From contig CAVQTN010000002.1 of NCBI GenBank assembly GCA_963716585.1, positions 389,730 to 453,729 on the forward strand: a DNA stretch of 64,000 bases. The letters are read 5' to 3'. The notes under the pieces are model-generated. The model was not told where the DNA came from. It searched no databases and saw only the letters and a program-made list of their open reading frames with translations. This document shows positions 1 through 64,000 of this stretch, one piece after another; position 1 is the stretch's first letter, and each line of letters begins with the position of its first letter. The position numbers and the translations under genes were made by a program. Source of the stretch: an uncultured Chloroflexia bacterium. Its GTDB lineage: Bacteria; Chloroflexota; Limnocylindria; QHBO01.

Positions 1-1071
1 CCCAGCGCCGGACCAATGCGCGAGATGAACTCCCCCAACCGCGCCGGCGGGAGCGACACATCGAGCTTGTGGACGATGCCGGCCGCCGCGATCGCCTCGG
101 TGTGCCGCTCCCGCAGCTCCCACAGCCGGCGCCGGCCGGCCGCGTCGGTCGCCAGCAGCACGTCGTCCCGTTCGCCGAGAAGGGCAACCAGCTCGTGGGT
201 CGGGTCGTGGCGTGCGGCAACCTCGAGCAGCAGGTAGGCGCCGTGCGGGCCGGAGAATGGCCGGGCCGCGCCCGTGTGGGCCACCACCAGTGAGAGACCC
301 TGCTCGAAGAACAGCTCGGCCGCCATCAGGGAGGCCAGCTCGCGCCGCGCGACGTCGACGACCGCGATGGCCGCCTCGGCCGACGGCAACGCCAGCAGGG
401 CCGTCGCGCGCGCCGGCAGCGGCGGCACGAGGGCCAGCCGAGCGCCGGTGATGATCGCCCAGGGTTCCCTCACTGCCGCACAGCAGGCCGGCCAGGTCGT
501 AGCCGGTGTTGTCCTTGCGCAGCCCCGCCAGCCGGCTGACGATTGATCCGTCGGCGAGCACCGCCTCCACGCCGAGCAGCTGCGAGCGCATGGCGCCGTG
601 ACGCAGGACATTGAGACCACCCGCGTTGGTGGCGATCATGCCGCCGATCGTCGCCGAGTCGCGCGCGCCGAGGTCGACGCCGAATCCCCACTCGGCAGCC
701 GCCGCGTGGGACTGCAGGCCGGCCAGCGTCAGGCCGGCGCCGACCGTCACGGCGCCAGCGTCGACTGGCTCCAGCGAACGCAGCCGTCCCAGGCTGAGCA
801 CCACCTCGCCGCCGCGTGGTACCGAGCCGCCGACCAGGCCGGTGTTGCCGCCCTGCGGCACGATCGGCACGCCGGCATCGGCGCAGCAGCGCACCACCTC
901 GGCGATCTCCTCGGTCGAGCCGGGACGCACGACCGCCAGCGCGGAGCCCGAGAAGCGTCGCGTCCAGTCCGTTTCGTAACCGGCCTTGCGGTCCGCATCG
1001 GTCAGGACATGCGCGTCACCGACGATCGTGCGCAGCTCGCTGAGCAGGCCCATCGGTCAATCCTGACATGC
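1..1071 (-). CDS. FAD-linked oxidase (GlcD / D-lactate dehydrogenase family); C-terminus lies beyond the window start; apparent 1-nt frame break near 456-462
   Basis: Minus-strand translation from the ATG at 1071/1056 reads MGLLSELRTIVGDAHVLTDADRKAGYETDWTRRFSGSALAVVRPGSTEEIAEVVRCCADAGVPIVPQGGNTGLVGGS...GSEGTLG (FAD_binding_4). After about position 460 the protein continues in another frame (AIITGARLALVPPLPARATALLALPSAEAAIAVVDVARRELASLMAAELFFEQ..., FAD-oxidase C-terminal domain). It is missing from the ORF track because it runs off the window edge. Confidence 0.6.
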
Positions 1072-10012: not shown

Positions 10013-10074
10013 CTCGCCCATTCCGGTCGGTTGATGCGCTGCACGACTCAAAGCGGGCCGCCCGCGACCGCTCC

Positions 10075-10734: not shown

Positions 10735-10873
10735 TGGTAGCGAACTCCGTTGGATGGTGATGCCCTGCGTAGACGCCCTCGCGTTGGTTCTTGTTCCAGA
10801 CCGATGCGTGACGCCCGCGGAGCCTGACTCGTGCCGGAGCCAAACCCGCGGCCGCTGAGTCGCTCGGCGACTG

Positions 10874-11000
10874 AAACGAGTGACACCCGCAGGCTCACCT
10901 GCCGCTCATGCGCCACAGGACTCAGATCAGCGCGATTGAGCGTTACTCGGCTGCAAACCGGTCGGTTTCAGTCGCCTGGCGCGTGAAACGCACGACAGCG
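10874..11000 (+). repeat. 127-nt structured direct repeat, copy 2, in the divergent promoter region between the lipoprotein gene and trpE
   Basis: Same element as 9886-10012 at 85% identity with no gaps. Here the 5' gaaacgagtg can additionally pair with cactcgtttg at 11011-11020. Confidence 0.8.
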
Positions 11001-11381
11001 CGCGCGTCCCACTCGTTTGACTCCCCGCCCAGCTCAAGCTGCGGCGGCGCCAGTTGACGTCACCGGAGCATCGGCCCATGATGCGCGCTCAATCGAACAC
11101 GACAGGCGTTGACCGGGACGATTAGTCGGTTGGCGGGCCCCACGAGCGAGCCGGGAGGGTGGAAGCCGGCGTGGCCCGATCCGATGAACTGGACCCGCGA
11201 GCCTCGCTCCGAACCCGGCGCCAACCACGCTGGCAGTAGGCGGCGACGAACTGACCGGACGTTAGCAGCGGTCGAACCGAGCGCGAGCCCGCAGCAACGG
11301 ACTCGAACCAGGGTGGCACCGCGGAAGAACGCCTCCGTCCCTTTGTATGGATGGAGGCGTTGCGGTACCTGCAAGGATGAA

Positions 11382-12775
11382 ATGACGCTCGCGGACACGA
11401 CACCCGGCATTGCGACCCTGGAGCTGGCGGCCGATACGCTGACGCCGGTCGCTGCCGCACTGCGCCTGGGTGATCGCTGCGCCTTCCTGCTGGAGAGCGT
11501 CGAGGGCGGCGTGCGCTACGGCCGCCACTCGATCGTGGGCGTCCGCGGCAGGACCCTGGTGGTGCGAGGCGAAACGGCCACGATCGACGGCCGGGACTTC
11601 GCCGCCGACGACCCGCTCGAGGCGTTGCGCGCCGTCCTGCCGCGGCAGGCCGCCGGTCGCGGCGACCTGCCGTTTCCGCTGGCATCCGGCGTGGGCTACC
11701 TGGGGTACGAGGCCGCGGCACGCTGGGAGCGCGTCCCGACGCCGTCCGCCGATCCGCTGGGCATGCCGGACGCCGTGCTGCACATTCCGGAGGCGGTGAT
11801 CATCTTCGACCACCTCGCACAGGTGATGCGCCTGGCTGCACTGGAAACGCCGCACGTGGCCATACGGCTCCAGGACCTCGCCGAGACACTGGGCCGGCCG
11901 AGCCCCGACGAGGCGCCGCGGCCAATGCCGCCATTGGCCGGCGAGGCGCCGCCGGACGATGCGGCGGCACGGGAGCGCTACGAACGCAACGTTGGGCAGC
12001 TGGTCGAGGAGATCCATGCCGGCGAGATGCTTCAGGCGGTCCTGGCTCGACGCTTCAGCATTCCGACGCAGCGCGGTGCCTTCGACATCTACCGCTCGCT
12101 GCGCCGCATCAACCCGTCGCCCTACCTCTTCTACCTCGACCTGTCGGACGTGGCGCCCCGTACGGCGCTGATCGGGGCCTCACCCGAGCTCCTCGTCCGG
12201 GTGCGCGACGGCGAAGTGGTGACCCGACCAATCGCCGGCACCCGGCCGCGCGCCGAGGATCCGAGCGAGGACGCCCGCCTGGAACGTGAGCTGCAGCACG
12301 ACCCGAAGGAGCTCGCCGAGCACGCCATGCTGGTCGACCTTGCCCGCAACGACGTCGGCCGCGTGTCGGTGGCGGCTTCGGTCGAAGTGCCGACGCTGCG
12401 CGCCGTCGAGCGCTACTCGCACGTCATGCACCTCGTCTCCGAGGTGCGCGGTCGGCTCCGGCCGGAGCTGGACGCCTTCGACGCGCTCCGGGCCGCCTTT
12501 CCCGCCGGCACGGTCAGCGGCGCGCCCAAGGTGCGCGCCATGCAGGCCATCGCCGACCTCGAGGGCGAGAAGCGCGGCCCGTACGGCGGCGCCATCGGCT
12601 TCTTCTCGTCGACCGACATCGAGGCGGCGATCACCATCCGCAGCGTCCTGCTGCGAGACGGCATGGCCCACGTGCAGGCCGGCGCCGGCATCGTCGCCGA
12701 CTCGGCGCCGCGCCGCGAGAGCGCCGAGGTGGCGGCCAAGGCCCAGGCAACCCTCGTGGCGGTCGGAGGAGGGGC

Positions 12776-12779
<4 letters not shown>
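11382..12779 (+). CDS. trpE: anthranilate synthase component I
   Basis: TrpE/chorismate-binding motifs are present (LLESVEGGVRYGRHSIVGV, GYLGYEAAARWE, FPAGTVSGAPKVRAMQAIADLEGEKRGPYGGAIGF). The start was set at ATG 11382 (MTLADTTPG). The 5' extension of the track ORF from 11109 lies over the repeat and was rejected. Confidence 0.85.
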
Positions 12780-13552
<773 letters not shown>

Positions 13553-13555
<3 letters not shown>

Positions 13556-14427
13556 TCCGCGATCCAGGTCCCGCGCCGTTGGCGTCGCGTTTCTTCCGCC
13601 CGTCGCCTTCCGTCGTCTCGGTTGGGCCGACCTCGTTCGGCGGCGGCGGACCGGTACTGGCCGCAGGCCCATGCGCCGTCGAGTCGCGGGAGCAGCTGCT
13701 GGCGGTTGCCTCGGCCGCTGCCTCGGTCGGGGCCGGGCTGCTGCGGGGCGGCGCCTTCAAGCCCCGCACCTCGCCATACGCGTTCCAGGGGCTGGGACCG
13801 GAGGGCCTCCGCCTACTGGCCGAGGCGCGCGCCGAGACGGGGCTGCCGGTCGCCACCGAGGTCCTGGCGCCGGAGCAGGTCGAGCTGGTGGCCGAGTACG
13901 CCGACATGCTGCAGGTCGGCGCGCGAAACATGCAGAACTTCTCGTTGCTCGCCGCCGTTGGAGCGGCCCGCAAGCCGGTGCTGCTGAAGCGCGGTCTTGG
14001 CGCAACGCTCGACGAGTGGCTGCTGGCGGCGGAGTACCTGATCGCCACCGGCGCCTCAGGCGTCGTGCTGTGCGAGCGCGGCCTGCGTCATTTCGACCCG
14101 CACACGCGCAACATCCTGGATCTCGCTGGTGCGGTGGCCGTGGGCTCCATGACGCACCTGCCGGTCATCGCCGATCCGTCGCACGCGACCGGCCGCCGCG
14201 ACCTCGTGATTCCGATGGCGCTGGCAGCGCTGGCTGCCGGCCTGAAAGGGGTCATCATCGAGGTCCACCCCGATCCGGACCGCGCGCTCTCCGACGGCCC
14301 CCAATCTCTCGACCTGGACGGTCTGCGCGAGTTGGCGGCGCGCATCGCCGGGTTGGGAATCAGGCTCGCCCAGCCCTCAAGACAGCCGCGCGCGACCACC
14401 GTCGAGGGCTGGGCCGGCTGGCGTTGA
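13553..14427 (+). CDS. 3-deoxy-7-phosphoheptulonate (DAHP) synthase, class I-beta, paralog 1
   Basis: DAHPS/KDO8PS-like motifs are present ([59 protein letters not shown]). The start is uncertain, a possible TTG near 13553. It overlaps the RES toxin gene convergently by about 50 nt. Confidence 0.75.
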
Positions 14428-14928
14428 GCGTCCTTCCAGCGGCTCGGGATGCTGCTCGCGCGATCCGACCGGCATGACCGCCTGAAAACCCCCGCGGAAG
14501 ACCACGAGCGACCAGTGGCCGCGGTGCGCGGCCGACGGAGCAACGATACCCAGCGCTCCCATGCGCCGTGCGCGTCGGCCAAGCTGTTGGGCACGTTCTC
14601 GCGGTCCCGTCAACTCCTCCTCGCTGACGCCCATTGCCTCGCGCACGTCGGGAACCCGCAGGTCGAGCACCGGGAGATCGTTGACGTCGAGCTCCCACAG
14701 GCATCGCGTCTCGTCCTCTGGACGGATTGCGCCGCGCGTCACAACGCTCCACTCGGCCCAAACGGTCGGCGCGTCGAGTGCTGCGTAGAGCGGCCACGAC
14801 TCGCCGGCGCGGTGGTATCGGGCCGATGCTGACGCCGGCCGGTCAGGCGGAAAGGCCGGGATGTCGACGCCGGTCTGGCGGTAGACGCGCCCAGAAAATC
14901 GGCTCAGGAGGTCGCTCGGCGGCCGCAC
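14377..14928 (-). CDS. RES-domain toxin (MbcT/ParT-like putative NAD+-targeting toxin)
   Basis: 183 aa. RES-domain signatures are present (RYHRAGESWPLYAALDAPTVWAEW ... LDLRVPDVREAMGV ... GALGIVAPSAAHRGHWSLVVF). It lies immediately downstream of the cognate Xre-like antitoxin gene. Confidence 0.7.
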   Translation of the reverse strand: MRPPSDLLSRFSGRVYRQTGVDIPAFPPDRPASASARYHRAGESWPLYAALDAPTVWAEWSVVTRGAIRPEDETRCLWELDVNDLPVLDLRVPDVREAMGVSEEELTGPRERAQQLGRRARRMGALGIVAPSAAHRGHWSLVVFRGGFQAVMPVGSREQHPEPLEGRSTPAGPALDGGRARLS

Positions 14929-14936
14929 CGGACGCG

Positions 14937-15263
14937 TCAGGCGAAGTCTCCGACGATGTACGACTCGGCAGCAGCGCGCACGCGCTCGAAGTCGCCCGCC
15001 GCCAGTCGGTCGATCGGCCGCTTCCAGCCGACGAACGCGCTGGGCGCCTCGAGCCAGGCCTGCTTGGCTTGTGGCGTCATGCCACGGCCGAGGGTGTCGA
15101 GCACCGCCTGGAGCTCGTGCATGCGCTCACGGTAGCGCCGCTGGGGGGACTGGCCGGCTCGCCAGCGCTCGGCGGTCCGCACGTCGGCGCCGGTCGCACG
15201 CGCGATGACCCGCGCCGGGAAGAGGCGGGCAAGGGGCAGCGGGCCCAATGTTGAGGCAACCAT
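14937..15263 (-). CDS. Xre-like antitoxin with a DUF2384 (MbcA/ParS-type) toxin-binding domain
   Basis: 108 aa. The C-terminus matches DUF2384 (TPQAKQAWLEAPSAFVGWKRPIDRLAAGDFERVRAAAESYIVGDFA). Its stop is 9 nt from the RES gene start. Confidence 0.65.
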   Translation of the reverse strand: MVASTLGPLPLARLFPARVIARATGADVRTAERWRAGQSPQRRYRERMHELQAVLDTLGRGMTPQAKQAWLEAPSAFVGWKRPIDRLAAGDFERVRAAAESYIVGDFA

Positions 15264-15496: not shown

Positions 15497-15913
15497 CTAG
15501 AGGCGAGCGATAAGCAGATCCAGCGCCTCGAGGTAGCCTCGCCAGCCGTGACCCGCGACCTGCGCAACACAGGCCGGCGCGGTCACCGATACCCGCCGCC
15601 ACGGCTCGCGCGCCGACGTGTCGCTGATGTGCACCTCGACCACCGGCCGCCCACACGCCACCAGTGCGTCGTGGAGCGCGTGGCTGGTGTGCGCCAGCGC
15701 CCCCGGATTGATGATCACCGCGTCGTAGTCAACCTGTTCCAGCCGGTCGATCAGCGCCCCCTCGTGGTTCGACTGCAGGTGCAGCACCTCGTGCTCGCCC
15801 GCCCGCTCCCGCAGCGCGGCGACGATCTCGTCGAGCGTCGTGGTGCCGTAGATCTCCGGCTGCCGGCGCCCCAGGATGCCCAGGTTCGGCCCGTTCAGGA
15901 CGAGGATCCTCAC
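15497..15913 (-). CDS. aroQ: 3-dehydroquinate dehydratase, type II
   Basis: 138 aa (MRILVLNGPNLGILGRRQPEIYG...HLQSNHEGALID...IINPGALAHTSHAL). Confidence 0.9.
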   Translation of the reverse strand: MRILVLNGPNLGILGRRQPEIYGTTTLDEIVAALRERAGEHEVLHLQSNHEGALIDRLEQVDYDAVIINPGALAHTSHALHDALVACGRPVVEVHISDTSAREPWRRVSVTAPACVAQVAGHGWRGYLEALDLLIARL

Positions 15914-17447
15914 GGTCCGATGCGCCGCATGGCGGCCTCCAGCTCCGCGTCGGACACGTCGTCCACCTCCTCCACCTGGCCGATGCTCATCGGCAGCAGC
16001 CAGCGCTGTCGCCCTTCCGACCGCTTCTTATCGGTCTCCAGCGACGAACGAACGACCGATGCGTCGAAGTCGCGCTGCAGGTTGAGGCCGAGGCCGATGA
16101 GCAGGTGGTCCAGGCGCTCGGGCAGCCCCGCATCGGCACCCCGGGCAACCGCCATGGCCGTGACCGCTCGCAGGCCGAGGGCGACCGCCGCACCGTGGGA
16201 CAGGCGGTAGCGGCTCTCGACCTCCAGCGCGTGACCGAGCGTGTGGCCGAGGTTCAGCTGACGGCGCTCGCCGTCCTCGAACGGGTCGCGCTGCACGATG
16301 TCGAGCTTCACCCGCGCCGCGCGCTCGGTGATCGCGTAGCGCGCCTCCTCGTCGCCGCCCAGCGCCGCATTGCCCCGCTGCTCGAGGAGCTCCCACAGCA
16401 CCGGGTCGCCGATCATCGCCGCCTTGATCGCCTCGGCCAGCCCGTCGCGCAGCTGGTCGCGCGACAGCGTGCGCAGCGCCTGAATGTCCGCCACGACCGC
16501 GACAGGCGGCCAGAAGGCACCGACCGCGTTCTTGGCACCGGTCAGATCGACCGCCACCTTGCCGCCAAGCGCCGCATCGGCCTGTGCCAGCCAGGTCGTC
16601 GGCAGGTTGACCCACGGCGCGCCGCGGGCGAACAGCGCCGCGGCCAGCCCGACCACGTCGCCGGTGGTGCCGCCGCCAACCGCGACCAGTGGATCGCCGC
16701 GCTCGTGGCGCACCTCGCTGAGCCAGTCGAGGATCCGTTCCAGGTTGCGCAGCCGCTTCGAGCGTTCACCGGCGGCGATCTCCAGGCGACGTCCGGGCGG
16801 CGCCAGGTTCGCCACCCGCCGATCGACGATCACCGACGGCGTGCCCTCCAGCTCGGGAAGCGGTGGCGCCACGCCATAGATCACGCGGGCGGTCGCGGGA
16901 CCCATCGGATGGTGGCGCGCGACCTCGGCGTCGAACAGGCGACGGCCGGCCGGCGCGGGCTGCGCCAGGAGATCGCAGATGCGGTCGAGCGCATTCGGCT
17001 CGGATGTGTCGAGGTGCACGTCCGCCGCTCGATAGAACGGCGCTCGCCGTTCGGCCAGGCGCTGCAGGCCTGCCGACGCGTCGTCGCCGAGCATCGGACG
17101 AGGCTCGCTACCGGCGATCCGCTGAGCGAGCATCTCGAGCGGCGCGTCGAGCCACACCACGCGGCCGTAATGCCACAGCCGCCAGCGATTGATCGGATCC
17201 TCGATCGCGCCGCCGCCGGTGGCCACCACGGCGCCCGCCGGCAGATCGGCCACGACCGCGGCTTCGTGCGCGCGGAACGCCGCCTCGCCATCCGTCGCGG
17301 ATCAGCTCGGCCGGCGTGCCGCCCGGTGCGCTGCCGAACAAGCTCATCGGTGTCGGCCAGTGGTCGGCCAAGGCGCGCCGCCAGGTCGCGAGCGAGCGTC
17401 GTCTTGCCGCTGCCGGACAGGCCGACCAGCACGACACCTTCAGCCAT
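15910..17447 (-). CDS. aroB: shikimate kinase fused in frame to 3-dehydroquinate synthase (AroK-AroB); the kinase N-terminal region is interrupted by two 1-nt frame breaks near 17318 and 17296
   Basis: The DHQS portion reads PLVAVGGGTTGDVVGLAAALFARGAPWVNLPTTWLAQADAALGGKVAVD and NLGHTLGHALE. The ORF opens inside the kinase C-terminal half (AVVADLPAGAVVATGGGAIEDP...VVWLDAPLEMLAQRI) with no stop before the DHQS domain. The kinase P-loop half (MAEGVVLVGLSGSGKTTLARDLAARLGRPLADTDELVRQRTG) is in the track ORF 16881-17852. Linking the pieces needs the path frame1, then GTPAELIR, then DGEAAFRAHEAAVVADL. Confidence 0.7.
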
Positions 17448-18192
17448 GCGCCAGCTCCGCCTGCAGCGCGGAGCGCATCGGTCCCATGGGGGCTTCACGG
17501 CCGGTCCACAGCGTGAAGCTGAGCGCCGCCTGTCGAAGCAGGACACCGCCGCCGTCGGTTGCCCGCGCGCCGACATTGCGTGCCTCGCGCACCAGGCGCG
17601 TCGGGCTCGGTCGATACACCAGGTCGAGCACCGCCAGGTCGGGTCGCAGAAGGCCTGCAGGGACCGGCGAGGTATCCGACCCGGTGCCGATCGGGGTGGC
17701 GTTGACGAGCAGATCCGCGTCGCGCAGCGCGTCGCGCAGCTCAGCCCACTGCGCACGCGTGACGACGGTGGCCGATGCGCCGGCGTCGGCCAGGGCAACC
17801 ACGATGGCGCGCGAGGCGCCGCCTGCCCCCAGGACGACGGCGCGTCGAGCATCCGGCGCGAGGGCGGCCAGCTCGGCGGCGATGGCGGGGAGGTCCGTGT
17901 TGTGGCCGATCAGGCGGCCCTCGTCGGGAACGATGGTGTTGAGTGCGCCGGCACGCTCGGCATCGGCTGCCAGCTCATCGACCAGCGCCATGGCCGCGAC
18001 CTTGTGCGGCTGGGTCACGTTGGCACCCGCCTCGTTGCGGAGTCCGTTGACTGCCGCGGGAAGGGCCTCGGACGGCACGTCGGCGAGCTCGTAGCGCAGG
18101 GCGAGCCGAAACGCCTCGAACGCCGCGTTCTGGATGGCCGGCGACGCCGAGTAGCCGATGTGCTGGCCGAGCAGCAACACGCGGCCGCTCAC
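17440..18192 (-). CDS. aroE: shikimate dehydrogenase
   Basis: 250 aa (LLGQHIGYSASPAIQNAAF...VTQPHKVAAMALVDEL...NTIV...VLGAGGASRAIVVAL...LLVNATPIG). Its stop overlaps the aroK start (ATGGCTGA). Confidence 0.85.
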   Translation of the reverse strand: MSGRVLLLGQHIGYSASPAIQNAAFEAFRLALRYELADVPSEALPAAVNGLRNEAGANVTQPHKVAAMALVDELAADAERAGALNTIVPDEGRLIGHNTDLPAIAAELAALAPDARRAVVLGAGGASRAIVVALADAGASATVVTRAQWAELRDALRDADLLVNATPIGTGSDTSPVPAGLLRPDLAVLDLVYRPSPTRLVREARNVGARATDGGGVLLRQAALSFTLWTGREAPMGPMRSALQAELAHG

Positions 18193-19388
18193 GCCCTGCC
18201 CTGGGGGCCGCCTGAGCGGCGACGGCGACGCGCCACCGCCGCCCGCACGTCGCCCAACGTGTCGCCGCCGAACGTGGCGAGCAGCTCGTCCGCCAGGATG
18301 AGCGCCACCATCGACTCACCCACGATCGCGGCGCGCGGCAGGATCGCCACGTCCGAGCGCTCGATGTGCGCCCGCTCCAGCGCCCCGCTGACCAGGTCGA
18401 CGCTGGGCAGCGAGCGCCGCAACGTGGCGACCGGCTTCACAGCCGCACGCACCACGACCGGGGCGCCGTTGCTCATGCCGCCCTCGATCCCACCTGCGTT
18501 GTTCGTGCGTCGCCGCCAGCCAGGACCGCCGGGCAGGACGACGTCGTGCACCTCGCTGCCCCGCCGCTCCACCACGCCGAAGCCGAGTCCGATCTCGACG
18601 CCCTTGACCGCAGGGATGGCCATCACCGCGGCGGCCAGCGCACCATCCAACCGCGTGTCCCACTCCGCGTCCGAGCCCAGCCCAATCGGCAGCCCATCCA
18701 CGACGACGACGAACGAGCCGCCGATCGAGTCGCCGGCCTCCTTGACCGCCTCGATCTCGTCCAGCATGCGGCCCTCGGCCTCCGGATCCGGGCAGCGCAG
18801 CGGGCTCGGCGCGCGCAGGTCATCGCGCCACCAGCCTTCGGGTACGCATTCGAGCGCCGTCGCGGCATCCGGGAAGGCACGCACCGAACCCAGCTGGTCG
18901 ACGAAGCTCCAGACCCGGACGCCGACCAGACGAAGCAGCTGCCGTGCGACCGCGCCCGCCACCGCACGCGCAGCCGTCGAGCGAGCTGATGCGCGCTCGA
19001 GCACGTCGCGCATGTCATCGGTGTCGTACTTGATAGCGCCGGCGAGATCGGCGTGACCGGGACGAGCACGGGTGATCGGCTTCGGCCGCCGCTCCGCCGG
19101 CACCACCTCGACCGCCATGCGATCGGTCCAGTTCTGCCAGTCGCGGTTCTCGACCATGAAGCCCAGCGGCGAGCCGAGCGTGTGGCCATAGCGCAGCCCC
19201 GCCATCCACTGCACGCGGTCGCGCTCGATCTGCATCCGCCGCCCGCTGCCGTAACCGTGCTGGCGCCGCTGGAGGTCGCGGTTGACGCCGGCGGTCGAGA
19301 TGCGCAACCCGGCGGGCAATCCTTCGAGCACGCCGACGAGTCCCGGGCCGTGTGATTCTCCCGCGGTCAGCAGTCGCAGCCGCCTCAC
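18189..19388 (-). CDS. aroC: chorismate synthase
   Basis: 399 aa (MRRLRLLTAGESHGPGLVGVLEGLPAGL...GRRMQIERDRVQWMAGLRYG...). Its stop overlaps the GTG start of aroE (GTGA). Confidence 0.9.
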   Translation of the reverse strand: MRRLRLLTAGESHGPGLVGVLEGLPAGLRISTAGVNRDLQRRQHGYGSGRRMQIERDRVQWMAGLRYGHTLGSPLGFMVENRDWQNWTDRMAVEVVPAERRPKPITRARPGHADLAGAIKYDTDDMRDVLERASARSTAARAVAGAVARQLLRLVGVRVWSFVDQLGSVRAFPDAATALECVPEGWWRDDLRAPSPLRCPDPEAEGRMLDEIEAVKEAGDSIGGSFVVVVDGLPIGLGSDAEWDTRLDGALAAAVMAIPAVKGVEIGLGFGVVERRGSEVHDVVLPGGPGWRRRTNNAGGIEGGMSNGAPVVVRAAVKPVATLRRSLPSVDLVSGALERAHIERSDVAILPRAAIVGESMVALILADELLATFGGDTLGDVRAAVARRRRRSGGPQGRA

Positions 19389-20699
19389 GCCGGCACCGCC
19401 GCCAGTGTTTCGAGATCGTCCCAGAAGGACGGATAGGAGACCGATGCGCTCTCCGCGTCATCAATCCGCACTGTTCCTCCGACACCGGTGAGCGCCGCGA
19501 TCGCGAAGGCGATCGCAATCCGGTGGTCGTGGTCCGTGGCAATGTCGGCGTCGCGCGACGTCCCACGCGACACCCGCCAACCATCCGGTCGCTCCTCAAC
19601 CGTGGCGCCGACGCGCGACAGGCCGGCGACGACCGCCGAGATGCGATCCGTTTCCTTGACCCGCAGCTCGCGCGCGTCGCGCAGCTCGGACTCGCCCTCG
19701 GCGGCGGCCATGGCGACCGCCAGCAACGGCAGCTCGTCGATGAGCGGCCGGGACCTCGTCACCAGCCAGGCTGACCGCCTCGAGCCGTGGCGCGCTGCGC
19801 ACCACGAGATCGCCCACGCGCTCGGGGCCGTCGTCCCGCTCCTCGCACACCACGACGTCGGCGCCCATACGCCGCAGGACGTCCACGTACCTCAGGCGCG
19901 TCCGGTTGAGGCAGACGTCGACCAGCCGCAGCTCCGCGTCCGGGTGAAGCGTCGCGGCGACGACCCAGGCGGCGGCGCTCGACGGGTCGCCGGCAACGTC
20001 CAGGCTGAAGGCTCGGGGGCGTGCCGGGCCGTGGACCGTTGTCACACGCTCGTCGCGGCGGATGCCCACGCCCAGCCAGGCAAGCAGCCGCTCGGTGTGG
20101 TCGCGCGTCGGTCCGGGCAGCTCGATGGTCGTTTCGCCCTCGGCGCCCAGCGCGGCGAGGCAGATCGCCCCGAGCACCTGCGCGCTGGCAATCTCGAGCC
20201 GATGCTGCGTCGCCCGCAGCCCTGCCGGCACGACGCGGATAGGTGCGTGACCGTCGGTCGTCGTCACGTCGGCGCCCATGGCTCGCAGCGGCGCTGCAAT
20301 GCGCTCCATCGGCCGTCGCCGCAGCGAGCCGTCGCCATCGAGCACCGCGGCGATGCCGTGCCCGGCCAGGAGCCCGGCCAACAGCCGCATGGTCGTACCC
20401 GAGTTGCCGCAATCGAGCGGAGCGCCGGTTTCGAGCGTCGCCAGGCAGCGCCGCGTGCTCTCGATGTCGGCGCCGGCGCCGTGGATTCGCACCTGCGACT
20501 CGCCGTCGGCGATGGCCGCAGCCATCAACGCCCGATGCCCGATCGACTTGTCCGACGGCACGCGGATCACCCCGCGCAGCGCCGGAGCCCGGCTCACCAC
20601 GCGCTTCACCGCCAGATACCCGCGGCATGGGTGAACGGCGACGGGAGCACCCGCAATCGTGCCAATCCACTCAGCAGGCGGGTCGTTCCCGCTCGACAT
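19385..20699 (-). CDS. aroA: 3-phosphoshikimate 1-carboxyvinyltransferase (EPSP synthase, class II-like); 1-nt frame break near 19757
   Basis: The N-terminal two-thirds are in ORF 19596-20699 (VPSDKSIGHRALMAAAIADGES, TRDHTERLLAWLGVGIR). The C-terminal third is in ORF 19385-19762 (LIDELPLLAVAMAAAEGESELRDARELRVKETDRISAV). Skipping one G in the cccggccg run gives the expected ...GDEVPPLIDELP... Confidence 0.75.
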
Positions 20700-20787
20700 G
20701 GCGGGTCGCAGCCGTCATCGGCCGCCAGCCACCCATCAGCAGGGTAACTGGCGGAAGCCGCGACCCCGGCGGCCATGCTCGAAGACA

Positions 20788-22099
20788 TCACGGGTGCACC
20801 TCCGATGCGTGGCGCCGCTGCACGGAGCGCGAAGCGCGCAGGATCGAGCCGAAGACCGCCGACATCTCCTCGACCGTCATCACGCCGTCGCCGGCGGCCG
20901 CGCGGACCAGCAGCTCGTGCTCGCGCCGCACGTCGTGGCCGTGCGTGCCATTGCCACGGGCCTGCTGGACGGCGAGCGCCGCCGCGGCCCGTTCCTGCAG
21001 CAGCGCCGCGATCCGGTGGTCCAGCGAATCGATCGTCTCGCGCAGCGCCACGACGTCGCCGGATGGCGGCGCCGGGGATGGCATCGGTCGCTCGGGAATG
21101 CGCACGAACTGCAGTCGTCGCAGCTCGTCCATGAGCTCGCCGAACTCCTCGAACGAGAGCGACTGGTCGCCATCGGATTTGGCCTGGGTGGGATGGGGAT
21201 GCACCTCGATGAGCAGGCCATCCGCTCCGACGGCAGCGCCGGCGAGCGCCATCGGTCCGACCAGGGCTCGCTGGCCGGTGCCGTGCGAGGGGTCGACCAT
21301 GATCGGCAGGTGGGTGCGCTGGCGCAGCACCGGCACGGCCGACAGGTCGAGCGTGTTGCGTGTGGCCGTCTCGAACGTGCGGATGCCACGTTCGCAAAGG
21401 ATCACGTTTGGGTTGCCGGAGGACAGGACGTACTCGGCCGCCAGCAGCCACTCCTCGATGGTCGCGCCGAAGCCGCGCTTGAGCAGCACCGGCAGCCGGC
21501 TGTGGCCCACGGCGCGCAGCAGCACGAAGTTGTGCATGTTGCGGCTGCCGACCTGCAGCACATCGACGTAGCGGGCGAAGATCTCGACCTGCGCCGGATC
21601 GGTCACCTCGCTGATGACCGGCAGGCCGGTCTCGTCGCGGGCGTGCGCCAACAGCTCCAGGGCGGCGGAGCCCGAGACCCTGGAAGGCGTACGGCGAGGT
21701 GCGCGGCTTGAAGGCGCCGCCACGCAGCAGGGTCGCGCCCTCGCGACGCGCCGCGCGGGCCGTGCTCAGCAGCTGGTCGGCGGATTCCACCGCGCACGGG
21801 CCGGCGACCACCTGCAGCTCGCCTCCGCCACCGACGTCGACGTCACGCACCCGAACCCGGGTGCGCTCCGGATGATGCTCGATGCTTGCCAGCTTGTACG
21901 GCTGGGTGACCCGGATGACCTGCTCGACGCCGGGGAAGGTTCCCAGGTGCGCCGCACGCTCCACCTCGGCGCCGACCACGCCGATCACCGTCCGCTCCTC
22001 GCCGACGCTGACGAAGGCCTGCAGGTCGTGCGCCTCGATGGCCTCCCGGACTGCCTTCACATCGTCCCGCGTCGCCGTCGGACGCATCACCACGATCAT
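20788..22099 (-). CDS. tri-domain DAHP synthase (N-terminal ACT-like regulatory domain, class I-beta DAHPS core, C-terminal AroQ-type chorismate mutase), paralog 2; 1-nt frame break near 21661
   Basis: The N-terminal part is in ORF 20606-22099 ([43 protein letters not shown]...[12 protein letters not shown]...[15 protein letters not shown]). The continuation is in ORF 20788-21723 ([45 protein letters not shown]...[12 protein letters not shown], then the CM domain [33 protein letters not shown]...). The break is an extra C in gccgccctggag. Confidence 0.75.
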
Positions 22100-22164
22100 C
22101 TGTCAACGCCTCTTGCTGTGCTCGGCGTCTCGTGCCGAATGGGTCCTGGCAGAGGGAAACAAAA

Positions 22165-22200
22165 AACGCACCGGTCCGGGCGGACCGCTGCGTCGGCGGG
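22165..22200 (-). terminator. rho-independent terminator or attenuator hairpin in the leader of the shikimate operon
   Basis: The minus-strand RNA reads GCAGCGGUCCGCCCGGACCGGUGCGUUUUUUGUUUCCC, a stem CGGUCC/GGACCG followed by a U6 tract. It lies about 65 nt upstream of the DAHPS-CM start. A T-run this AT-rich is rare in this sequence. Confidence 0.6.
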
Positions 22201-22246
22201 CACGAGTGCCTCTGCTGGCGGGACTTGCCCGTCTGCCTCGTACCCG

Positions 22247-22276
22247 CTAGGCGTAGTACCAGCACGTGTGGTTCAT
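22247..22276 (-). promoter_or_regulatory. candidate attenuation leader peptide MNHTCWYYA with adjacent Trp-Tyr-Tyr codons
   Basis: The minus-strand reading is ATG AAC CAC ACG TGC TGG TAC TAC GCC TAG. It starts 38 nt after the SDR stop and ends about 45 nt before the terminator hairpin. The aromatic codons sit at the 3' end of the leader, ahead of an aromatic-pathway operon. Confidence 0.45.
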
Positions 22277-22313
22277 GAGTGCGCGGAAGGGTAATCCCGT
22301 TTCCCGACCGATG

Positions 22314-23021
22314 TCAACGCTCGGTCGCCCGACGGATGGCGACGCTCGGCGGCAGGATGGTGCGTCCGCCGTCGGCGTGCCACACCGCGCCGGTGACGTA
22401 GCTCGCCTCCGGCGAGACGAGGAATGCGATGACGTCGGCGATCTCCACGGCGCGCCCCATGCGCCCGAGCGGCACGTCCGGGCGCTCGCCAGGCGGAAAT
22501 GCTGCCGCATCGAAGGCCGTGTCGATCGCCCCGGCGGCCACGACGTTGACGCGCACCTCGGGGGCGCCGATGAGCGCCATCGAGCGAGCGAGGCCCTCCA
22601 GCCCGGCCTTCGACGCCGCGTAGGCAGGTGAACGCGGCGAGCCCTCGGCGGCCCCGGCGATACTGCCGACCAGCACAGCCGCCCCTCGCGATGCGCGCAG
22701 GAGCGGGAGCGCGGCGCGCATCGCCAGGTACGGCGCCCGCAGGTTGACGCGCAGCAGCTCGTCCCACGCCTCGAGGTCGTCCCAGGGCCCCGCCGCCGGC
22801 AGTCCTGCCGAGCAGACCAGGGCGTCGAGCGTCCCGTCGAGCTGCTCGAGGGCGCCAGCCAGCACCGCCTGGTCGCCCGCGTCGCCGACCATGTCCGCGT
22901 CCAGCCCGGGCTGCAGGTCGATTCCCAGCACGCGCCAGGCATCGCCGCGCAGACGCTCGGCGACCGCCTGGCCGATCCCGGAGGCGGAGCCGGTGACGAG
23001 CGCGCTGCGTGGTTGTTTCAT
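22314..23021 (-). CDS. SDR-family short-chain dehydrogenase/reductase
   Basis: The start is the ATG at 23021 (MKQPRSALVTGSASGIGQAVA), a TGxxxGxG Rossmann motif. The YxxxK context is AYAASKAGLEGL. The overlapping 594-aa track ORF is spurious. Confidence 0.8.
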   Translation of the reverse strand: MKQPRSALVTGSASGIGQAVAERLRGDAWRVLGIDLQPGLDADMVGDAGDQAVLAGALEQLDGTLDALVCSAGLPAAGPWDDLEAWDELLRVNLRAPYLAMRAALPLLRASRGAAVLVGSIAGAAEGSPRSPAYAASKAGLEGLARSMALIGAPEVRVNVVAAGAIDTAFDAAAFPPGERPDVPLGRMGRAVEIADVIAFLVSPEASYVTGAVWHADGGRTILPPSVAIRRATER

Positions 23022-58465: not shown

Positions 58466-58830
58466 GTAGCCCGATCCCGCCACGCGCGCAGCGCCTGGAG
58501 CGTTGCCTCCCACTCCACGGCGAGCCCGGCGAGGTCGTCGGCGGCGCCGTCCAAAGCATCCTCCCGTCCCGCGGCCTCGAGGCGTCGCGCACGAGCCGCC
58601 AGGCGCTGCGCCCCGACCGTGGCGCTGCTCGACTTCAGCGTGTGCGCCGGCCGTACCACCGACGCGGCATCGTGCGCGTCCGCCGCGGCCTGGATCTCGG
58701 CGATCTGGCGCGGCGCATCGCCGAGATAGGTGTCGATCAGATCGACGACGAAAGCGCTGTCGCCGCCGACCGAGGCCGCCAGCTCGGCCAATGCAACGTC
58801 ATCGAGGAGGGGGAGCTCAGGCTCGGGCAC
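58462..58830 (-). CDS. Hpt (histidine phosphotransfer) domain protein
   Basis: 122 aa. The phospho-His context is [26 protein letters not shown], which is typical of Hpt. Confidence 0.75.
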
Positions 58831-61800
58831 GTGATTTCCTCTTGCGCGGGGACCCGGGTTGCGCGGCCGGCACTCTCATTGGCGTCCGCTCCAGGGCGGC
58901 CGCCAGCTCCGGGGGGCGGATGGGCTTGCTCAGGTAATCGTTCATCCCAGCGGCCAGGCACGCCTCGCGGTCGCCGGCCATGGCGTTGGCGGTCATGGCC
59001 ACGATCCACAGCGGCCGACTCCGGCCAGCGGGAGCGGATCGCGCGCGTGGCACCGAGTCCGTCGAGCTCGGGCATCTGGACGTCCATGAGCACCACGTCG
59101 AACGGCGTCGCGCTCGAGTGCCGCGATCGCCTGCAGCCCATCGGCTGCCACCTGCGCGGTGTAACCGAGCTGCGCCAGCAATCGCAGGGCGAGCTTCTGG
59201 TTCACGGCGTTGTCCTCGGCCAACAGGATGCGCAATGGATTGCGCTCGCCAAGCAGGCCGTCATCGTTCGTCGCGACCTTGCCCGGCGCGGGACGCCGCG
59301 TCACGACCGGCGCCGAGCAGGATCGTGGCAATGGTGTCGTGCAGCGCCGACGGCTTGACCGGCTTCGCCAGCCAGTCCGTCACCGGACCGCCATCCCGGT
59401 CCCGCATGCCGACCGACGACAGGATCACCAGCGGTGTCTGCTGACGATGCGCCGTCTCATCGACGGCGCGGACGCGTTCCGCGAGCTCGACTCCGTCCAG
59501 CTCTGGCATCAGCAGGTCGAAGAGGGCGATGTCGAAGCGCTCGCCGTGCTCGAGCCATTCGAGCGCCTCGAGCGGCGAGCCCGTCTCGCGCGGCACCATC
59601 CCCCAGCGCGCGGTCTGCGCCACGAGGATGCGGCGATTCGTGGCGTTGTCATCGACGATCAGCGCCGTTCGTCCGCTCGAGGTCAGCCTCGATCCGCGCC
59701 GGTCGACTGGGTGCCACCGCATCTGGCGCGGCGAGCGGCATGCGGACCGAAAGATGGAAGACGCTCCCCTCTCCGGGGACGCCCTGGCTCTCGACAGTCA
59801 GCGAGCCATCCATCAGCTCCGCGAGCCGGCGGCTGATGGCGAGGCCGAGGCCGGTGCCGCCGTATCGGCGCGCAATCGACGCATCGGCCTGGCTGAAGGA
59901 CTGGAAGAGCCGATCCATGGCAGCCGCCGGGATACCAATGCCCGTGTCGCGAATGTCGATGCGGACCTCGCAGCGACCCAGGCTGCCGCGCTTCGGACGC
60001 TTCGATCTGGGTTCCGCCGACCGTCACGACGACCTCGCCCTGCTCGGTGAACTTGACGGCGTTCGAGAGCAGGTTGAGGAGCATCTGGCGCAACCGGCCC
60101 GCGTCGCCGACCAGGGCGGCGGGAAGCTCCTCGTCGACGGCGTAGACCAGCTCGAGGCCCTTCTTGGCAGCAGCCGGCGCGATGATGTCGAGCGAGACCT
60201 CGATGGCGTCGCGCAGGTTGAACGGGGCGTTCTCGAGATCGACGCGCCCCGCCTCGATCTTCGAGAAGTCGAGCACGTCGTTGATGATCGTCAGCAGCGC
60301 GTCACCCGACGTGCGGATCGTCTCGGCGAAGTCGCGCTGCTCCTCGTCGAGCGGTGTGTCCATCAGCAGCCCCGACATGCCGATGATGGCATTCAGCGGC
60401 GTCCGGATCTCGTGGCTCATGGCCGCCAGGAAGCTGCTCTTGGCCTCGTTGGCCTGCTCGGCGGCGTCTACGCGACTCCTGGGCCTCGCCGAAGAGGCGC
60501 GCATTCTCGAGCGCGATGGCCGCCTGCTGCGAGAGCCCGACCAGGAAGCTCAGGTCGGCGTTGCTGAACGGCGTCGGCGAGTCGGTCCGCCACATCGCCA
60601 GCATGCCGGCGACGGCTCCGCGGACCACGAGTGGCGCCGCCATGAGGCGTTCGGCGCCGTGCTGCTGCGTGCCCTCGATGGTCATCGCCCGAGGATCCGC
60701 ATTGGGGTCGTTGATGGCCTCTGCCGTACCGGTAACGGCAATATCACCCAGGATGCCGGCGCCACGGGTGATCAGGGAGGCGCGCAGCTGCTCGGCGATG
60801 TCTCCCTGTGCCGACGACCGCCCGGAACCTCTCGCCGTCCTGTTCCGGCAGATAGATCGCGGCGGCATCGGCGCGCAGCAGCCGAATGGCGCGCGAGGCG
60901 ATGACGTCGAGCACCGTCGACAGGTCGAGCGTCGCGGAGATCTCGCGCCCGACGTCGGCGAGCCCCGCCATCTCGTCGGCGCGGCGCCGGGTCTCGTCGT
61001 ACAACCGTGCGTTCTGGACCGCGACGCCGACGTTCGCGGCAATCGTCGCGAGCAGCCGCGCATCGGCGTCGCCGAAGCGGCTGTCGCTGGTGGTGCTCTG
61101 CACGCTGATGGCGCCGATGGCCCGGTCGCCTACCAGGATCGGCACGCCCAGGTACGACCGCGCGCGCGTTCCGACGCCTCGCTCCCCAGCGTCTCCCAGT
61201 CCGATTCGCTGTTGAGCAGCAGCGGCGCGCGGCCCGCGATCACGCGGGACGTCAGTCCGGTGCCCAGCGGCAGCGGATCCTGGCGCTCGTGGGTTCCACG
61301 CTCGACGTAGAACGGAAAGTCGATGACTCCGTGACTCCTCGTCGAGGAGCGCCACGTAGGTGATGTCGGCGTCGAAGGCATCGCGCGTCTTCTCGCCGAC
61401 GAGCGCCAGCAGCGGCTCGACCTCCATGCGCGCGGTCAGCGCCTCGCCCACGGTGTTGATCGTTCCAAGCTCGCCGACACGCTGGCGTGTCTCGTCGATG
61501 AGCCGACCCGTTCGCAGTGCCACGCTGAGGCTGGCCGCAATCGTGGTCAGCAGGGAGACATCGGCCTCGTTGAAGGCATATTCGCGGTCGAGGTTCTGGA
61601 GCGAGATGACGCCTAGGATCTCGTCGCCCAGGACGAGCGGGGCGAAGATCGCCGAGCGGGCCGGCTCACCGCTGAGCTGTGAAGGCTGGCCCAGCTCTGC
61701 CCCGACCTCGCGAAGGTCGTGGGTGATGAGCAACGGTTCCCGCGTCTCGATCACCCGCTTGCGGAAGCCCATCACCGGCCGCGACTCGACCGGATAGCGC

Positions 61801-64000
61801 TTGCCACGCTCCAGCGTGAACGGGAATTCCATCGTCTGGGTCGTCGCGTCGTAGACGGCGATGTCGACCACCTGCGTGTCGAAGACGTCGCTCGCGCGCT
61901 CGCCGACCAGCTCGTACATCGCCTGCACATCGACCTCGGCGGCGAGCCGGCGCTGCACGCTGTTGACGATCGCCAGCTCGGCGGCGCGCCGGTCGGTCTC
62001 CGCCAGCAGCCGCTTCGTCTCGTCGAAGAGACGAGCGTTCTCGAGCGCGACGCTGAGGCTCGACGTGAGCGTCGTCAGCAGTCGCACATCCGAGTCCGAG
62101 AAGGCGTCCTCGCGATCGATGTTCTGCAGCGAGATGACGCCTCGAGCCTCGTCCCCGACGATCGAGTGGAACCCACAGGCCCGACTGCGGCGCTTCACCT
62201 TGAACCACGCAGTGCCCAGGCGTGCTCCTGAAAGACACTCTGGATGTCGCGACCGATGAGCAGCGGCTGGCGCGTCTCCATCACGTGGGCTCGCAACCCG
62301 CCGATGGGCTGCGGCTCGTCAGGCAGACGCTCACCGCGCTCGATGGTATACGGATAGCGGATGAGCCCGGCTTGACGGTCGACGATGCCGATGTCGACGA
62401 CCTGCGCGTCGAAGATCTCCTGGATCTTGTCGCCGACGAGGTCGTACATCGCCTGCATGTCGAGCTGCGACGCAAGCCCCTGCTGGACGCTGTTGACGAC
62501 CGCCAACTCGGCCGCCCGCTCGATCGGTCTCGGTCAGAAGGCGCTTCGTCTCGTCGAAGAGCCGCGCGTTCTCGAGCGCCACGCTCAGGCTGGCGGCCAG
62601 CGTCGACAGGAGGCGCACGTCCGCTTCGGAGAATGCGTTCGTCCGATCCAGGTTCTGGAGCGAGATGCGGCCCCGAACCTCGCCGGCGGCGAACAACGGC
62701 GCCGCCACCAGGCTGAGTGCCGGCTCGCCCTGGATCGGTTGCAGGTCCTGTCCGGTTTCCACGTTCCAGGCGGGGACGTCGGCGATGTAGATCGGCTCCG
62801 CGCGCTCGATCAATTGCGCCGAATAGCCATGGACCGGCACCGGTTCATCGGGATAGCGTACGCCGCGCTCGATGGCGTACGGGAAGTGAATCAGGTTCGA
62901 CGCGGTGTCGATGATGCCGATGTCGACGACCTGCGCGTCGAAGATCTCCTGGATCTTGTCGCCGACGAGCTCGTACATCGACTGCATGTCGAGGTTCTGC
63001 GGCCAGCCCCTGCTGGACGCTGTTGACGACCGCCAGCTCGGCGGCGCGCTCGTCGGTCTCGGCCAGCAGGCGCTTCGTCTCGTCGAAGAGGCGGGCGTTC
63101 TCGAGCGCCACGCTGAGGCTGGAGCCAGCGTGGTGAGGAGGCGCACATCGGAATCCGAGAAGGCGTGCTCGCGGTCGAGGTTCTGGAGCGAGATCCGCCC
63201 GCGGATCTTCCCGTCGCCGAAGAGCGGCGCCATCACGAGGCTCCTGGACGGTTCACCCTGGGTGATGACCGTGCCGCCGGCGTGTTCGCTTGTCCCAAGC
63301 GTCGTAGTCGGGGATCAGCACCACCGAGCCGGTGCGGATCAGCTCGGAGGAGAGCCCGGAGCCCTCCAGCGTGGTCGGCTCGGTCGCGGAAAGCGCACCC
63401 CGCGCTCGATGGCGTAGGGGTAGCGCACCAGCCCGGCGTCGAAATCGAAGATGCCGATGTCGACGACCTGCGCGTCAAAAATCTCGCGGATCTTGTCGCC
63501 CACCAGTTCGTACATCGCCTGCATGTCGAGGTTCTGGGCCAGCCCCTGCTGGACGCTGTTGACCACCACCAGCTCGGCCGCGCGCTCGTCAGCCTCGCCC
63601 AGCAGCCGCTTCGTCTCGTCGAACAGCCGAGCGTTCTCGAGCGCCACGCCCATGCTCGATGCGACCGTGCTGAGGAGCCGCTCGTCGCTTTCGGAATAGG
63701 CATTCGGCTTCAGGTTTTCGAGGCCGATGATGCCGATCACCCGCTCGCCGGCGAGGATCGGCACGCCGAGCCATGACTCCGACGCCGGTCCCGCCACCAC
63801 GATCGCGTCGCTGGCTGCCGTATCGTCCAGCCTGCCGAGGCGCAGCGGCGCGCGCGATGCGATGACCTTGGAGGTGAGGCCCTGCCCCAGCTGAATCGGC
63901 TCGCTGTGCAGCCGATCCCCCTCGGCGATCTCATACGGGAACCGGATGACGTTGGTCGCCTCGTCGTAGAGGGCGACAAACAGCGAGGTCGCGTCGAAGA
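58817..64000 (-). CDS. hybrid sensor histidine kinase with at least 7 tandem GAF domains, HisKA, HATPase_c, and two receiver domains; N-terminus beyond the window end; reading frame interrupted at several points
   Basis: The pieces in the track are as follows. GAF modules of about 175 aa recur with a period of about 525 nt between 60300 and 64000 ([43 protein letters not shown]...[22 protein letters not shown]). HisKA and HATPase_c lie at 59649-60504 ([19 protein letters not shown] ... [17 protein letters not shown], then after a frame change [23 protein letters not shown]). REC1 is at 59261-59722 and REC2 is split over three frames (58817-59331). Confidence 0.6.

Follow-up and report, generated by a model that had tools for sequence, protein, structure and literature searches.

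Single-base frame breaks in the shikimate operon of an uncultured Candidatus Limnocylindria are best explained as consensus errors of the assembly

The frame breaks in the shikimate operon of the Candidatus Limnocylindria contig analyzed here are very probably single-base consensus errors of the assembly rather than changes in the DNA of the organism. The window, as the whole 64-kb stretch of DNA that was analyzed is called here, is part of a 1,158,598-bp (1.16-Mb) contig from an uncultured member of Candidatus Limnocylindria (Chloroflexota), which is most likely the product of a long-read metagenome assembly. Sequencing or assembly error was the first reading offered in the original prediction, and it is favored because the same type of lesion is found in unrelated genes and because the affected genes are intact in relatives, including an aroA that is unbroken in a near-identical independent contig (L001).

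Four one-base breaks had been predicted in the operon, and all four are present, on the minus strand, as frame changes in DAHPS-CM, aroA, and aroK (one or two in each gene). The break sites were placed by aligning the window with intact relatives, each appearing as one extra base in the window, and the coordinates first given for them lie within about 12 nt of the aligned positions. The operon is arranged as follows, in window coordinates, with square brackets enclosing the extra base.

22100..22320, minus strand: conserved operon leader, intact in the window, with a TTGACA box, a 9-codon aromatic leader ORF, a long stem, a terminator hairpin, and a T-run.
20788..22099, minus strand: DAHPS-CM, bifunctional DAHP synthase/chorismate mutase (ferredoxin-like domain, DAHP_synth_1, and CM_2), with an extra base at ~21666 in CTCC[G]CCGCC.
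19385..20699, minus strand: aroA (EPSP synthase), with an extra G at 19745 in CCGGCC[G]CTCATC.
18189..19388, minus strand: aroC (chorismate synthase), an intact single ORF of 399 residues; L001 encodes an identical protein.
17440..18192, minus strand: aroE (shikimate dehydrogenase), an intact single ORF of 250 residues, matched over its full length by the orthologue in relative L085.
15910..17447, minus strand: aroK-aroB fusion (shikimate kinase and 3-dehydroquinate synthase), with two extra bases, both in the kinase part, at ~17319/20 in GGGCG[G]CACG and at ~17292/3 in GACG[G]ATGG.
15497..15913, minus strand: aroQ (type II 3-dehydroquinate dehydratase), intact, 138 residues; an identical protein is encoded on the independent contig L082.

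In the window DAHPS-CM runs in frame −1 and then in frame −0, and relatives read GLGLPALELL at this point in a single frame; the aroK-aroB fusion passes through frames −2, −1, and −0 where relatives have a single-frame RTGRTPAEMIRDDGEPAFR. The claim that removal of one base at each site restores the expected protein holds, the corrected genes being free of stops and encoding 436 (DAHPS-CM), 437 (AroA), and 511 residues (AroK-AroB). The lengths of the corrected DAHPS-CM and AroK-AroB are those usual for the lineage, and the corrected AroA corresponds to the intact 437-residue AroA of L001. All three domains are found in the corrected DAHPS-CM, and SKI, DHQ_synthase, and DHQS_C are present in the corrected AroK-AroB. 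Together with a second DAHP synthase of 353 residues, described below, all of the corrected proteins reach full length, and their Pfam domains are complete. Neither nonsense codons nor larger deletions occur in the broken genes, no internal stops are left once single bases are corrected, and the codon-position GC signal is strong throughout these genes.

The breaks had been described as confined to the shikimate operon, but only 4 of the 22 firm single-base breaks in the 64 kb lie within 15910–22099. The remainder are in unrelated genes and in the second DAHP synthase, so that six genes are affected in all: one break falls in an FAD-linked oxidase, two in the second DAHP synthase, and four in the operon, and the other 15 all belong to a hybrid histidine kinase. 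The features outside the operon that bear on the argument are the following.

1..1055, minus strand: FAD-linked oxidase (GlcD-like), which continues beyond the window, with an extra base near 456 in a conserved SEGTLG|IIT motif.
12776..13363, plus strand: trpG, with TGG at 13361–13363 where relative L166 has a TGA stop, giving an in-frame read-through into the ATG of the next gene.
13364..14427, plus strand: second DAHP synthase paralogue, following trpE-trpG, with extra bases at ~13461 (GCTC[G]CCTCG) and ~13552–13554.
14377..15263, minus strand: RES-domain toxin (14377–14928, Pfam RES match) and putative antitoxin (14937–15263).
58817..64000, minus strand: hybrid sensor histidine kinase (seven GAF domains, HisKA, HATPase_c, and two REC domains), running off the window, with 15 single-base breaks.

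In the oxidase, the break (at ~456) leaves the FAD_binding_4 and FAD-oxidase_C domains of Pfam in different frames. Reconstruction of the second DAHP synthase from three frames gives a protein of 353 residues, whose N terminus is not matched by the ferredoxin-like domain model; the reconstruction is settled by homologues of identical length, since the intact relatives are exactly 353 residues long, with 86–89% identity at 100% coverage. The kinase breaks, located by codon-usage segmentation and translation, extend from ~59012 to ~63387 and comprise 11 insertions and four deletions. The Pfam domains of the kinase run across the frame junctions, three of which were resolved to single bases, and the stitched protein is colinear over residues 6–1699 with an intact ORF of 1888 residues in the closest relative (75% amino acid identity).

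The distribution of the breaks is indeed nonuniform, as had been stated. The block from about 22 to 56 kb that had been described as clean shows no breaks in a frame segmentation based on codon usage or in spot checks, and no breaks fall anywhere within 21.7–59.0 kb. Under a uniform model with 20 events, a break-free stretch of 37 kb has a probability of ~2e-8, and none as long arose in 200,000 simulations; the contrast in density is between no breaks in 37 kb and 15 in 4.4 kb. GC content was considered as a cause of the clustering and rejected, as the clean block overlaps in GC with the kinase region, which is itself one of the most GC-poor parts of the window. Three ORFs in the same frame at 33.9–36.6 kb, considered as a gene with hidden nonsense lesions, are separate genes for a cupredoxin, COX II, and COX I, each with a ribosome-binding site, and no hidden broken genes were found in the long unassigned stretches of the window. 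An additional frameshift considered at the end of trpG was likewise discarded, since DNA alignment shows the TGA/TGG difference in the stop codon instead, which may be either a base error or a genuine substitution.

The lesions consist solely of insertions or deletions of one base, with 18 insertions and four deletions; the excess of insertions has a binomial p of 0.012, computed on 16 versus 4. The suggestion that they are of the homopolymer type is not borne out, as the base-resolved sites lie in runs of one to four bases and the inserted G or T is outside long runs. At 19745 and at ~63000 the inserted G interrupts a run of C (CCC to CCGC), so these insertions are not a product of replication slippage. 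No slippery motif is shared among the break sites. A real strand-specific process that inserts G on the coding strand throughout was also considered and rejected: only three insertions are unambiguously G, all in minus-strand genes, another is T, and at the plus-strand sites the inserted base is ambiguous.

The most direct comparison is with L001, an independent Logan contig from run ERR11596054 that is 99.72% identical to the window over 3.2 kb. At the aroA site it differs from the window solely in lacking the extra G, and it encodes the intact AroA. It should be noted that this near-identical comparison covers aroA only, the other three operon sites being compared with relatives that are ~84–90% identical in DNA. 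In those relatives (L083–L085 and L166–L169), DAHPS-CM (436 residues), AroK-AroB (511–512 residues), AroA, the second DAHP synthase (353 residues), and trpG are all in a single frame, and the sole uncompensated coding gaps between them and the window are the break sites. A search for further near-identical contigs by exact protein look-up returned with aroQ only a 1.1-kb contig that ends short of aroK; aroE and a 447-residue truncated ORF were not on record. None of ten corrected variants (AroK-AroB, AroA, and eight of DAHPS-CM) was present in the collection, a null result that is uninformative. A metagenome-assembled genome (MAG) of another species of the same class (L006), with an MFD isolate name and contigs named in the “contig_N” style, has four +1 breaks in aroC, aroE, and aroK-aroB, whereas four MAGs with k141- or NODE-style (short-read) names have no breaks in the operon. 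The set to which L006 belongs consists of Nanopore-only assemblies treated with one round of Medaka (PMC12313526).

The consensus errors probably arose as follows. Consensus quality would vary along the contig, with weakly supported parts in the window at ~0.5, 13.4–21.7, and 59–64 kb, in which consensus calling would have introduced spurious bases one at a time, for the most part as insertions, each splitting a gene that is otherwise perfectly preserved; the region from 21.7 to 59 kb would be well supported and hence clean. The clustering may be due to local coverage, strain mixture, or mis-mapping of repeats. Indels in Nanopore consensus sequences are known to produce frameshifted gene calls, especially below ~40× coverage (PMC9262707), and frameshifts from long-read indels are the subject of further work (proovframe, bioRxiv 10.1101/2021.08.23.457338; Kastor, PMC12007338). 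The breaks in the window resemble those of Nanopore assemblies and MAGs in being isolated one-base indels in otherwise intact, unrelated genes that are absent from short-read assemblies of relatives, on a contig of megabase scale, and they resemble those of L006 in both lesion type and operon. Two observations stand against an artefact: the errors lie outside long homopolymers, the textbook failure mode of Nanopore sequencing, and their strong clustering is matched by no quantity measured here, GC included. In these respects they differ from typical Nanopore frameshifts, although the platform was probably a long-read one.

One particular form of the artefact explanation, which is possible although not the probable one, is a chimeric or mixed-population consensus, in which reads of co-occurring relatives were merged and polishing on mis-recruited reads produced indels that belong to no single genome. 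Such a process would explain why the breaks cluster. Each affected stretch shows either high conservation among related Limnocylindria (the aro genes, at ~84–90% DNA identity) or internal repetition (the GAF repeats of the kinase), and independent short-read contigs of the near-identical population end inside the operon, at window positions 17707/20927 and 15259/16401, a pattern to be anticipated where sequence is shared between strains or species. However, a conserved SDR gene just upstream, ~85% identical to its relatives, is unbroken, and in the kinase the breaks are as frequent in the nonrepetitive part (HisKA, HATPase, and REC) as in the repeats.

Genuine decay would mean very recent pseudogenization, with both DAHP synthases, shikimate kinase, and EPSP synthase lost by +1 insertions in an incipient, community-reliant aromatic auxotroph and the sensor kinase and oxidase decaying in parallel. 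The breaks are physically in the deposited sequence, six of the seven in 13.4–21.7 kb hit genes of one pathway, and the corrected proteins have no exact match elsewhere, but the balance of the evidence makes this very unlikely. The aroA gene is intact in a strain that is 99.72% identical, five of the seven coding SNPs between the window and L001 are synonymous (a small sample), codon bias is kept, nonsense mutations and larger deletions are absent, the leader is intact, and aroB, aroC, aroE, aroQ, and trpE are unbroken. The occurrence of 15 indels in 4.4 kb of the kinase and none in the adjacent 37 kb is far from any natural ratio of indels to substitutions. Bacterial pseudogenes are usually deletion-biased, which the 18:4 excess of insertions opposes, and the Nanopore-only MAG of another species has the same type of lesion in the same operon. 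Pseudogenes of reductive evolution are known from Mycobacterium leprae and from recently host-restricted bacteria; the window resembles these in having frame disruptions in several genes of one pathway, but differs from them in the absence of nonsense codons, larger deletions, deletion bias, and relaxed constraint, in the intact state of a near-identical strain, and in a lesion density in one gene that is implausibly high beside 37 kb with none.

Two further suggestions were attached to the idea of decay. Redundancy through a second aro set finds no support, as the only second aro gene in the window, the DAHP synthase at 13364–14427, is itself broken twice. A link to an adjacent toxin-antitoxin insertion also fails: a RES/antitoxin pair, which in the window lies in the variable spacer between two converging gene sets, is in the same place in relatives L167 and L168, where all aro and trp genes are intact, and it is therefore not a recent insertion connected with the breaks. 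Should the extra bases nevertheless be real, which is highly improbable, +1 insertions would very recently have inactivated shikimate kinase, EPSP synthase, and the two DAHP synthases in a free-living soil strain of Limnocylindria that keeps the other genes of the pathway and the attenuator. The strain would then offer a snapshot of the first steps toward community-dependent aromatic amino acid auxotrophy, perhaps driven by a mutator state prone to insertions, which would also have broken the large sensor kinase many times.

Programmed recoding, in which a +1 shift of the ribosome or slippage during transcription would restore the proteins in vivo, has a negligible likelihood: all four operon breaks are of the same sign (+1), and a full protein would require one extra base to be read past, as in the known programmed +1 frameshifting of prfB, but all orthologues examined are single-frame and have no shift site, which effectively refutes it, and, unlike the prfB type, the shifts in the window have no motif in common and occur at many sites and with both signs, the 15 events in one kinase gene being implausible on this basis.

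With the breaks taken as consensus errors, the best reading of the sequence is that the operon (DAHPS-CM, aroA, aroC, aroE, aroK-aroB, and aroQ) is intact and functional and is under the control of a predicted aromatic leader-peptide attenuator. The leader ORF starts with an ATG at 22276 and encodes MNHTCWYYA*. The leader is kept in seven Limnocylindria loci, with a consensus structure that includes compensatory pairs, and it has no match to an Rfam family. Ribosome-mediated attenuators with aromatic leader peptides include pheL and trpL of Escherichia coli and, in Corynebacterium glutamicum, the aroR leader that precedes aroF. The leader in the window is like these in having a short ORF ending in Phe, Trp, or Tyr codons, followed by alternative stems, an intrinsic terminator, and genes of aromatic biosynthesis. 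It differs in its occurrence in Candidatus Limnocylindria (Chloroflexota), in preceding the gene order DAHPS-CM-aroA-aroC-aroE-aroKB-aroQ, and in having no Rfam family match. This predicted attenuator is the one biologically interesting by-product of the analysis.

Consensus errors can cluster strongly, and several “pseudogenes” that fall close together in a single operon can thus mimic the decay of a pathway. Frame-aware correction or polishing is therefore needed ahead of metabolic inference from this assembly: annotated as it stands, it lacks DAHP synthase, shikimate kinase, and EPSP synthase and would lead to a prediction, very probably false, of aromatic amino acid auxotrophy for an uncultured lineage of Chloroflexota.

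The window (GC content about 70%) carries a compact aromatic-biosynthesis operon on its minus strand, delineated by the open reading frame (ORF) list and domain hits:

22099-20788, minus strand: DAHP synthase fused to chorismate mutase (DAHPS-CM)
20699-19385, minus strand: aroA
19388-18189, minus strand: aroC
18192-17440, minus strand: aroE
17447-15910, minus strand: aroK-aroB fusion
15913-15497, minus strand: aroQ

The ATG of aroK-aroB overlaps the aroE stop codon (ATGGCTGA). Shikimate kinase and 3-dehydroquinate synthase form a single 511-512-aa protein in the closest relatives of the window, and an AroK-AroB fusion of about 510-570 aa is present in 120 of 120 homologues among the matches listed (P0001-P0120). 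The original prediction was of single-base frame disruptions in DAHPS-CM, aroA and aroK, each correctable by removal of one base. The frame changes, one in DAHPS-CM, one in aroA and two within about 27 nt in the aroK part, appear alike in the raw sequence, in a codon-position GC plot and in the list of ORFs. With one base removed per site, the three genes do encode proteins (436, 437 and 511 aa) that are free of internal stops and whose domain sets are complete.

An independent Logan contig from run ERR11596054 (L001) matches window positions 17707-20927 at 99.72% identity, differing by 8 substitutions and 1 gap. Its AroA, of 437 aa, is intact, and the sole gap is the extra G of the window at 19745 in aroA (CCGGCC-CTCATC versus CCGGCCGCTCATC). 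Near-identical sequence was compared at this site only, the other three operon sites being judged against relatives about 84-90% identical in DNA (L083, L084 and L085), in which the operon genes are single-frame. The whole operon is present on L085 (GCA_038248695.1), with proteins of 436, 407, 399, 250 and 511 aa. Alignment with L083, L084 and L085 leaves uncompensated coding gaps at three places only, each a single additional base in the window:

~21666, minus strand: extra base in DAHPS-CM, where the relatives read GLGLPALELL
~17319/20, minus strand: extra base in the aroK part, a gap against the relatives
~17292/3, minus strand: extra base in the aroK part, a gap against the relatives

Across both aroK sites the relatives read RTGRTPAEMIRDDGEPAFR. 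Because of these gaps, and because single-base deletion gives stop-free full-length proteins, all four operon breaks are assigned as +1 insertions.

A Viterbi segmentation by codon usage, with the long ORFs of the window as its training set, was run over all 64 kb and also places frame switches outside the operon, in three genes:

1055-1, minus strand, running off the window: FAD-linked (GlcD-like) oxidase, frame change (one extra base) near 456
58817-64000, minus strand, running off the window: giant hybrid histidine kinase, >1,700 aa, 15 single-base frame breaks
13364-14427, plus strand, directly after trpE-trpG: second DAHP synthase (second DAHPS), broken twice

The oxidase break falls inside a conserved motif (SEGTLG|IIT, the bar marking the break), and FAD_binding_4 and FAD-oxidase_C lie in different reading frames. 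The kinase is split into 16 frame segments which, when stitched, contain 7 GAF, HisKA, HATPase_c and 2 REC domains; domains cross the junctions, one REC covering model positions 1-110 of 111 over three frames, and the stitched protein aligns with an intact 1888-aa ORF of a metagenome contig (L136) in one colinear HSP (residues 6-1699, 57% identity). Alignment of the gene's own GAF-linker paralogues gave base-level calls at three junctions:

~63126: one base missing
~63000: extra G, GGCC[G]CAG
~62525: extra T, CCGA[T]CGAG

The kinase is followed by a separate ORF with an Hpt domain (58462-58830) and, at 57.4-58.5 kb, by a REC-adenylate/guanylate-cyclase-like gene. The second DAHPS is readable only through three frames; its reconstruction has 353 aa, exactly the length of the intact proteins of relatives (86-89% identity, 100% coverage), and DNA alignment locates the two insertions:

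~13461: extra base, GCTC[G]CCTCG, whose correction restores an invariant Pro
~13552-13554: extra base

The end of trpG was rejected as a further frameshift, since TGG at 13361-13363, where the relative L166 has a TGA stop, keeps the frame and gives in-frame read-through into the DAHPS start codon; from the sequence, this may be an erroneous base or a genuine trpG-DAHPS fusion.

The firm single-base breaks in the window number 22 (18 insertions and 4 deletions), and only 4 of them lie in the interval (15910-22099) to which they had been thought confined, the other 18 being in the oxidase, the kinase and the second DAHPS. The expected clean block at about 22-56 kb was borne out: no breaks were found from 21.7 to 59.0 kb, where inspection of possible nonsense sites and of long stretches without assigned genes revealed nothing broken. 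The unevenness is also real: for 20 events placed uniformly, the break-free stretch has p ~2e-8, and 200,000 simulations produced none as long. What the pattern shows is a contig with two poor stretches and one clean one, not a broken operon. Three genes considered as nonsense lesions were rejected, being separate genes each with its own ribosome-binding site:

33916-36630, plus strand: cupredoxin, cytochrome oxidase subunit II and subunit I, consecutive in the same frame with single stop codons between them

At Rfam gathering thresholds the window yields a single RNA gene, a tRNA-Gln (CTG anticodon; 56024-56098, minus strand). A gene at 10084-10722 lies between the two copies (9886-10051 and 10872-11037) of a 166-nt direct repeat, which are 80% identical, and a short tandem array at 9805-9878 with units AGTCGC(GGTG/CTGGCTCGCGGTG) adjoins the first copy.

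The frame breaks are very probably an assembly artefact. The aroA insertion is absent from the 99.7%-identical independent assembly, and every affected gene is intact in all short-read-style relatives examined. The broken genes contain only +/-1 indels, with no nonsense codons or larger deletions found, and the codon-position signal is undiminished through them. Five of the 7 coding substitutions between the window and L001 are synonymous, apparently reflecting purifying selection that has continued to the present, and the regulatory leader of the operon is intact. The 15 indels in 4.4 kb of the kinase gene, against none in the adjoining 37 kb, have no known natural counterpart. Bacterial pseudogenes have a deletion bias, and the 18:4 excess of insertions runs opposite to it. 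Finally, some insertions place a G within a short C-run (CCC to CCGC), which is not a product of replication slippage. The suggestion of homopolymer-type sequencing error is supported as to error, but the homopolymer type is not in keeping with the sites.

Decay of the operon, the alternative offered, is left unsupported by the intact aroA in L001, the lack of nonsense codons or larger deletions, the intact leader and the mostly synonymous substitutions. Redundancy with a second aro set fares no better, the sole paralogue in view, the second DAHPS, being itself broken. Decay had also been linked to a toxin-antitoxin insertion:

14377-15263, minus strand: RES-domain toxin and putative antitoxin (108 aa), in the spacer between converging gene sets

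The layout is trpE-trpG-DAHPS, a variable spacer holding this pair, and aroQ-aroKB-aroE converging from the other strand; two relatives (L167 and L168) share it with all genes intact, which argues against the link. A RES pair occurs at the same place in both (9615-10438), alongside MerR/TipAS and PIN genes, which are absent from the window.

As to why artefactual breaks should cluster, GC content does not track them in the window. Reads of co-occurring relatives may have been mis-recruited onto conserved genes or the kinase's internal repeats, as the roughly 84-90% DNA identity of aro genes between related species would allow and as fits the independent short-read contigs of a near-identical population, which end inside the operon; the adjoining conserved SDR gene, however, is clean. 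A local drop in read depth is also possible.

The intact leader was compared in seven Limnocylindria loci (the window, L002, L004, L005, L006, L084 and L085):

22100-22320, minus strand: conserved leader upstream of DAHPS-CM

A TTGACA box is common to all seven, as are a leader ORF of 8-9 codons that ends in a run of aromatic residues (MNHTCWYYA in the window; MNAFWFYA, MKSFFWFYA, MSHNFWFYA, MTRNFWFYA and MTNRYWYYV) and a long invariant stem that begins at the leader stop codon. Inner and terminator hairpins keep their pairing by compensatory changes in the loci compared and are followed by a T-run. Judged by its sequence, this looks like the anatomy of a ribosome-mediated attenuator sensing the supply of Phe, Trp and Tyr. 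The leader has no match in Rfam, and no description of such a leader for Chloroflexota was found in the literature searched.

The contiguity of the source contig (1,158,598 bp; uncultured Candidatus Limnocylindria lineage) points to a long-read assembly. Gene-splitting indels in Nanopore consensus sequences are well documented, especially below ~40x coverage (PMC9262707). The set to which L006 belongs, recognized by its MFD isolate name and "contig_N" naming, consists of Nanopore-only assemblies with one Medaka round (PMC12313526). L006 (MFD02134.bin.2.238, contig_34039), from a different Limnocylindria species, thereby serves as a direct control: its copy of the operon (10001-13514) carries four separate +1 breaks, in aroC, aroE and aroK-aroB, with more outside the operon, whereas no operon break was seen in four MAGs of this class with k141/NODE-style names. 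The shikimate pathway of L006 is therefore understated in the public record as well.
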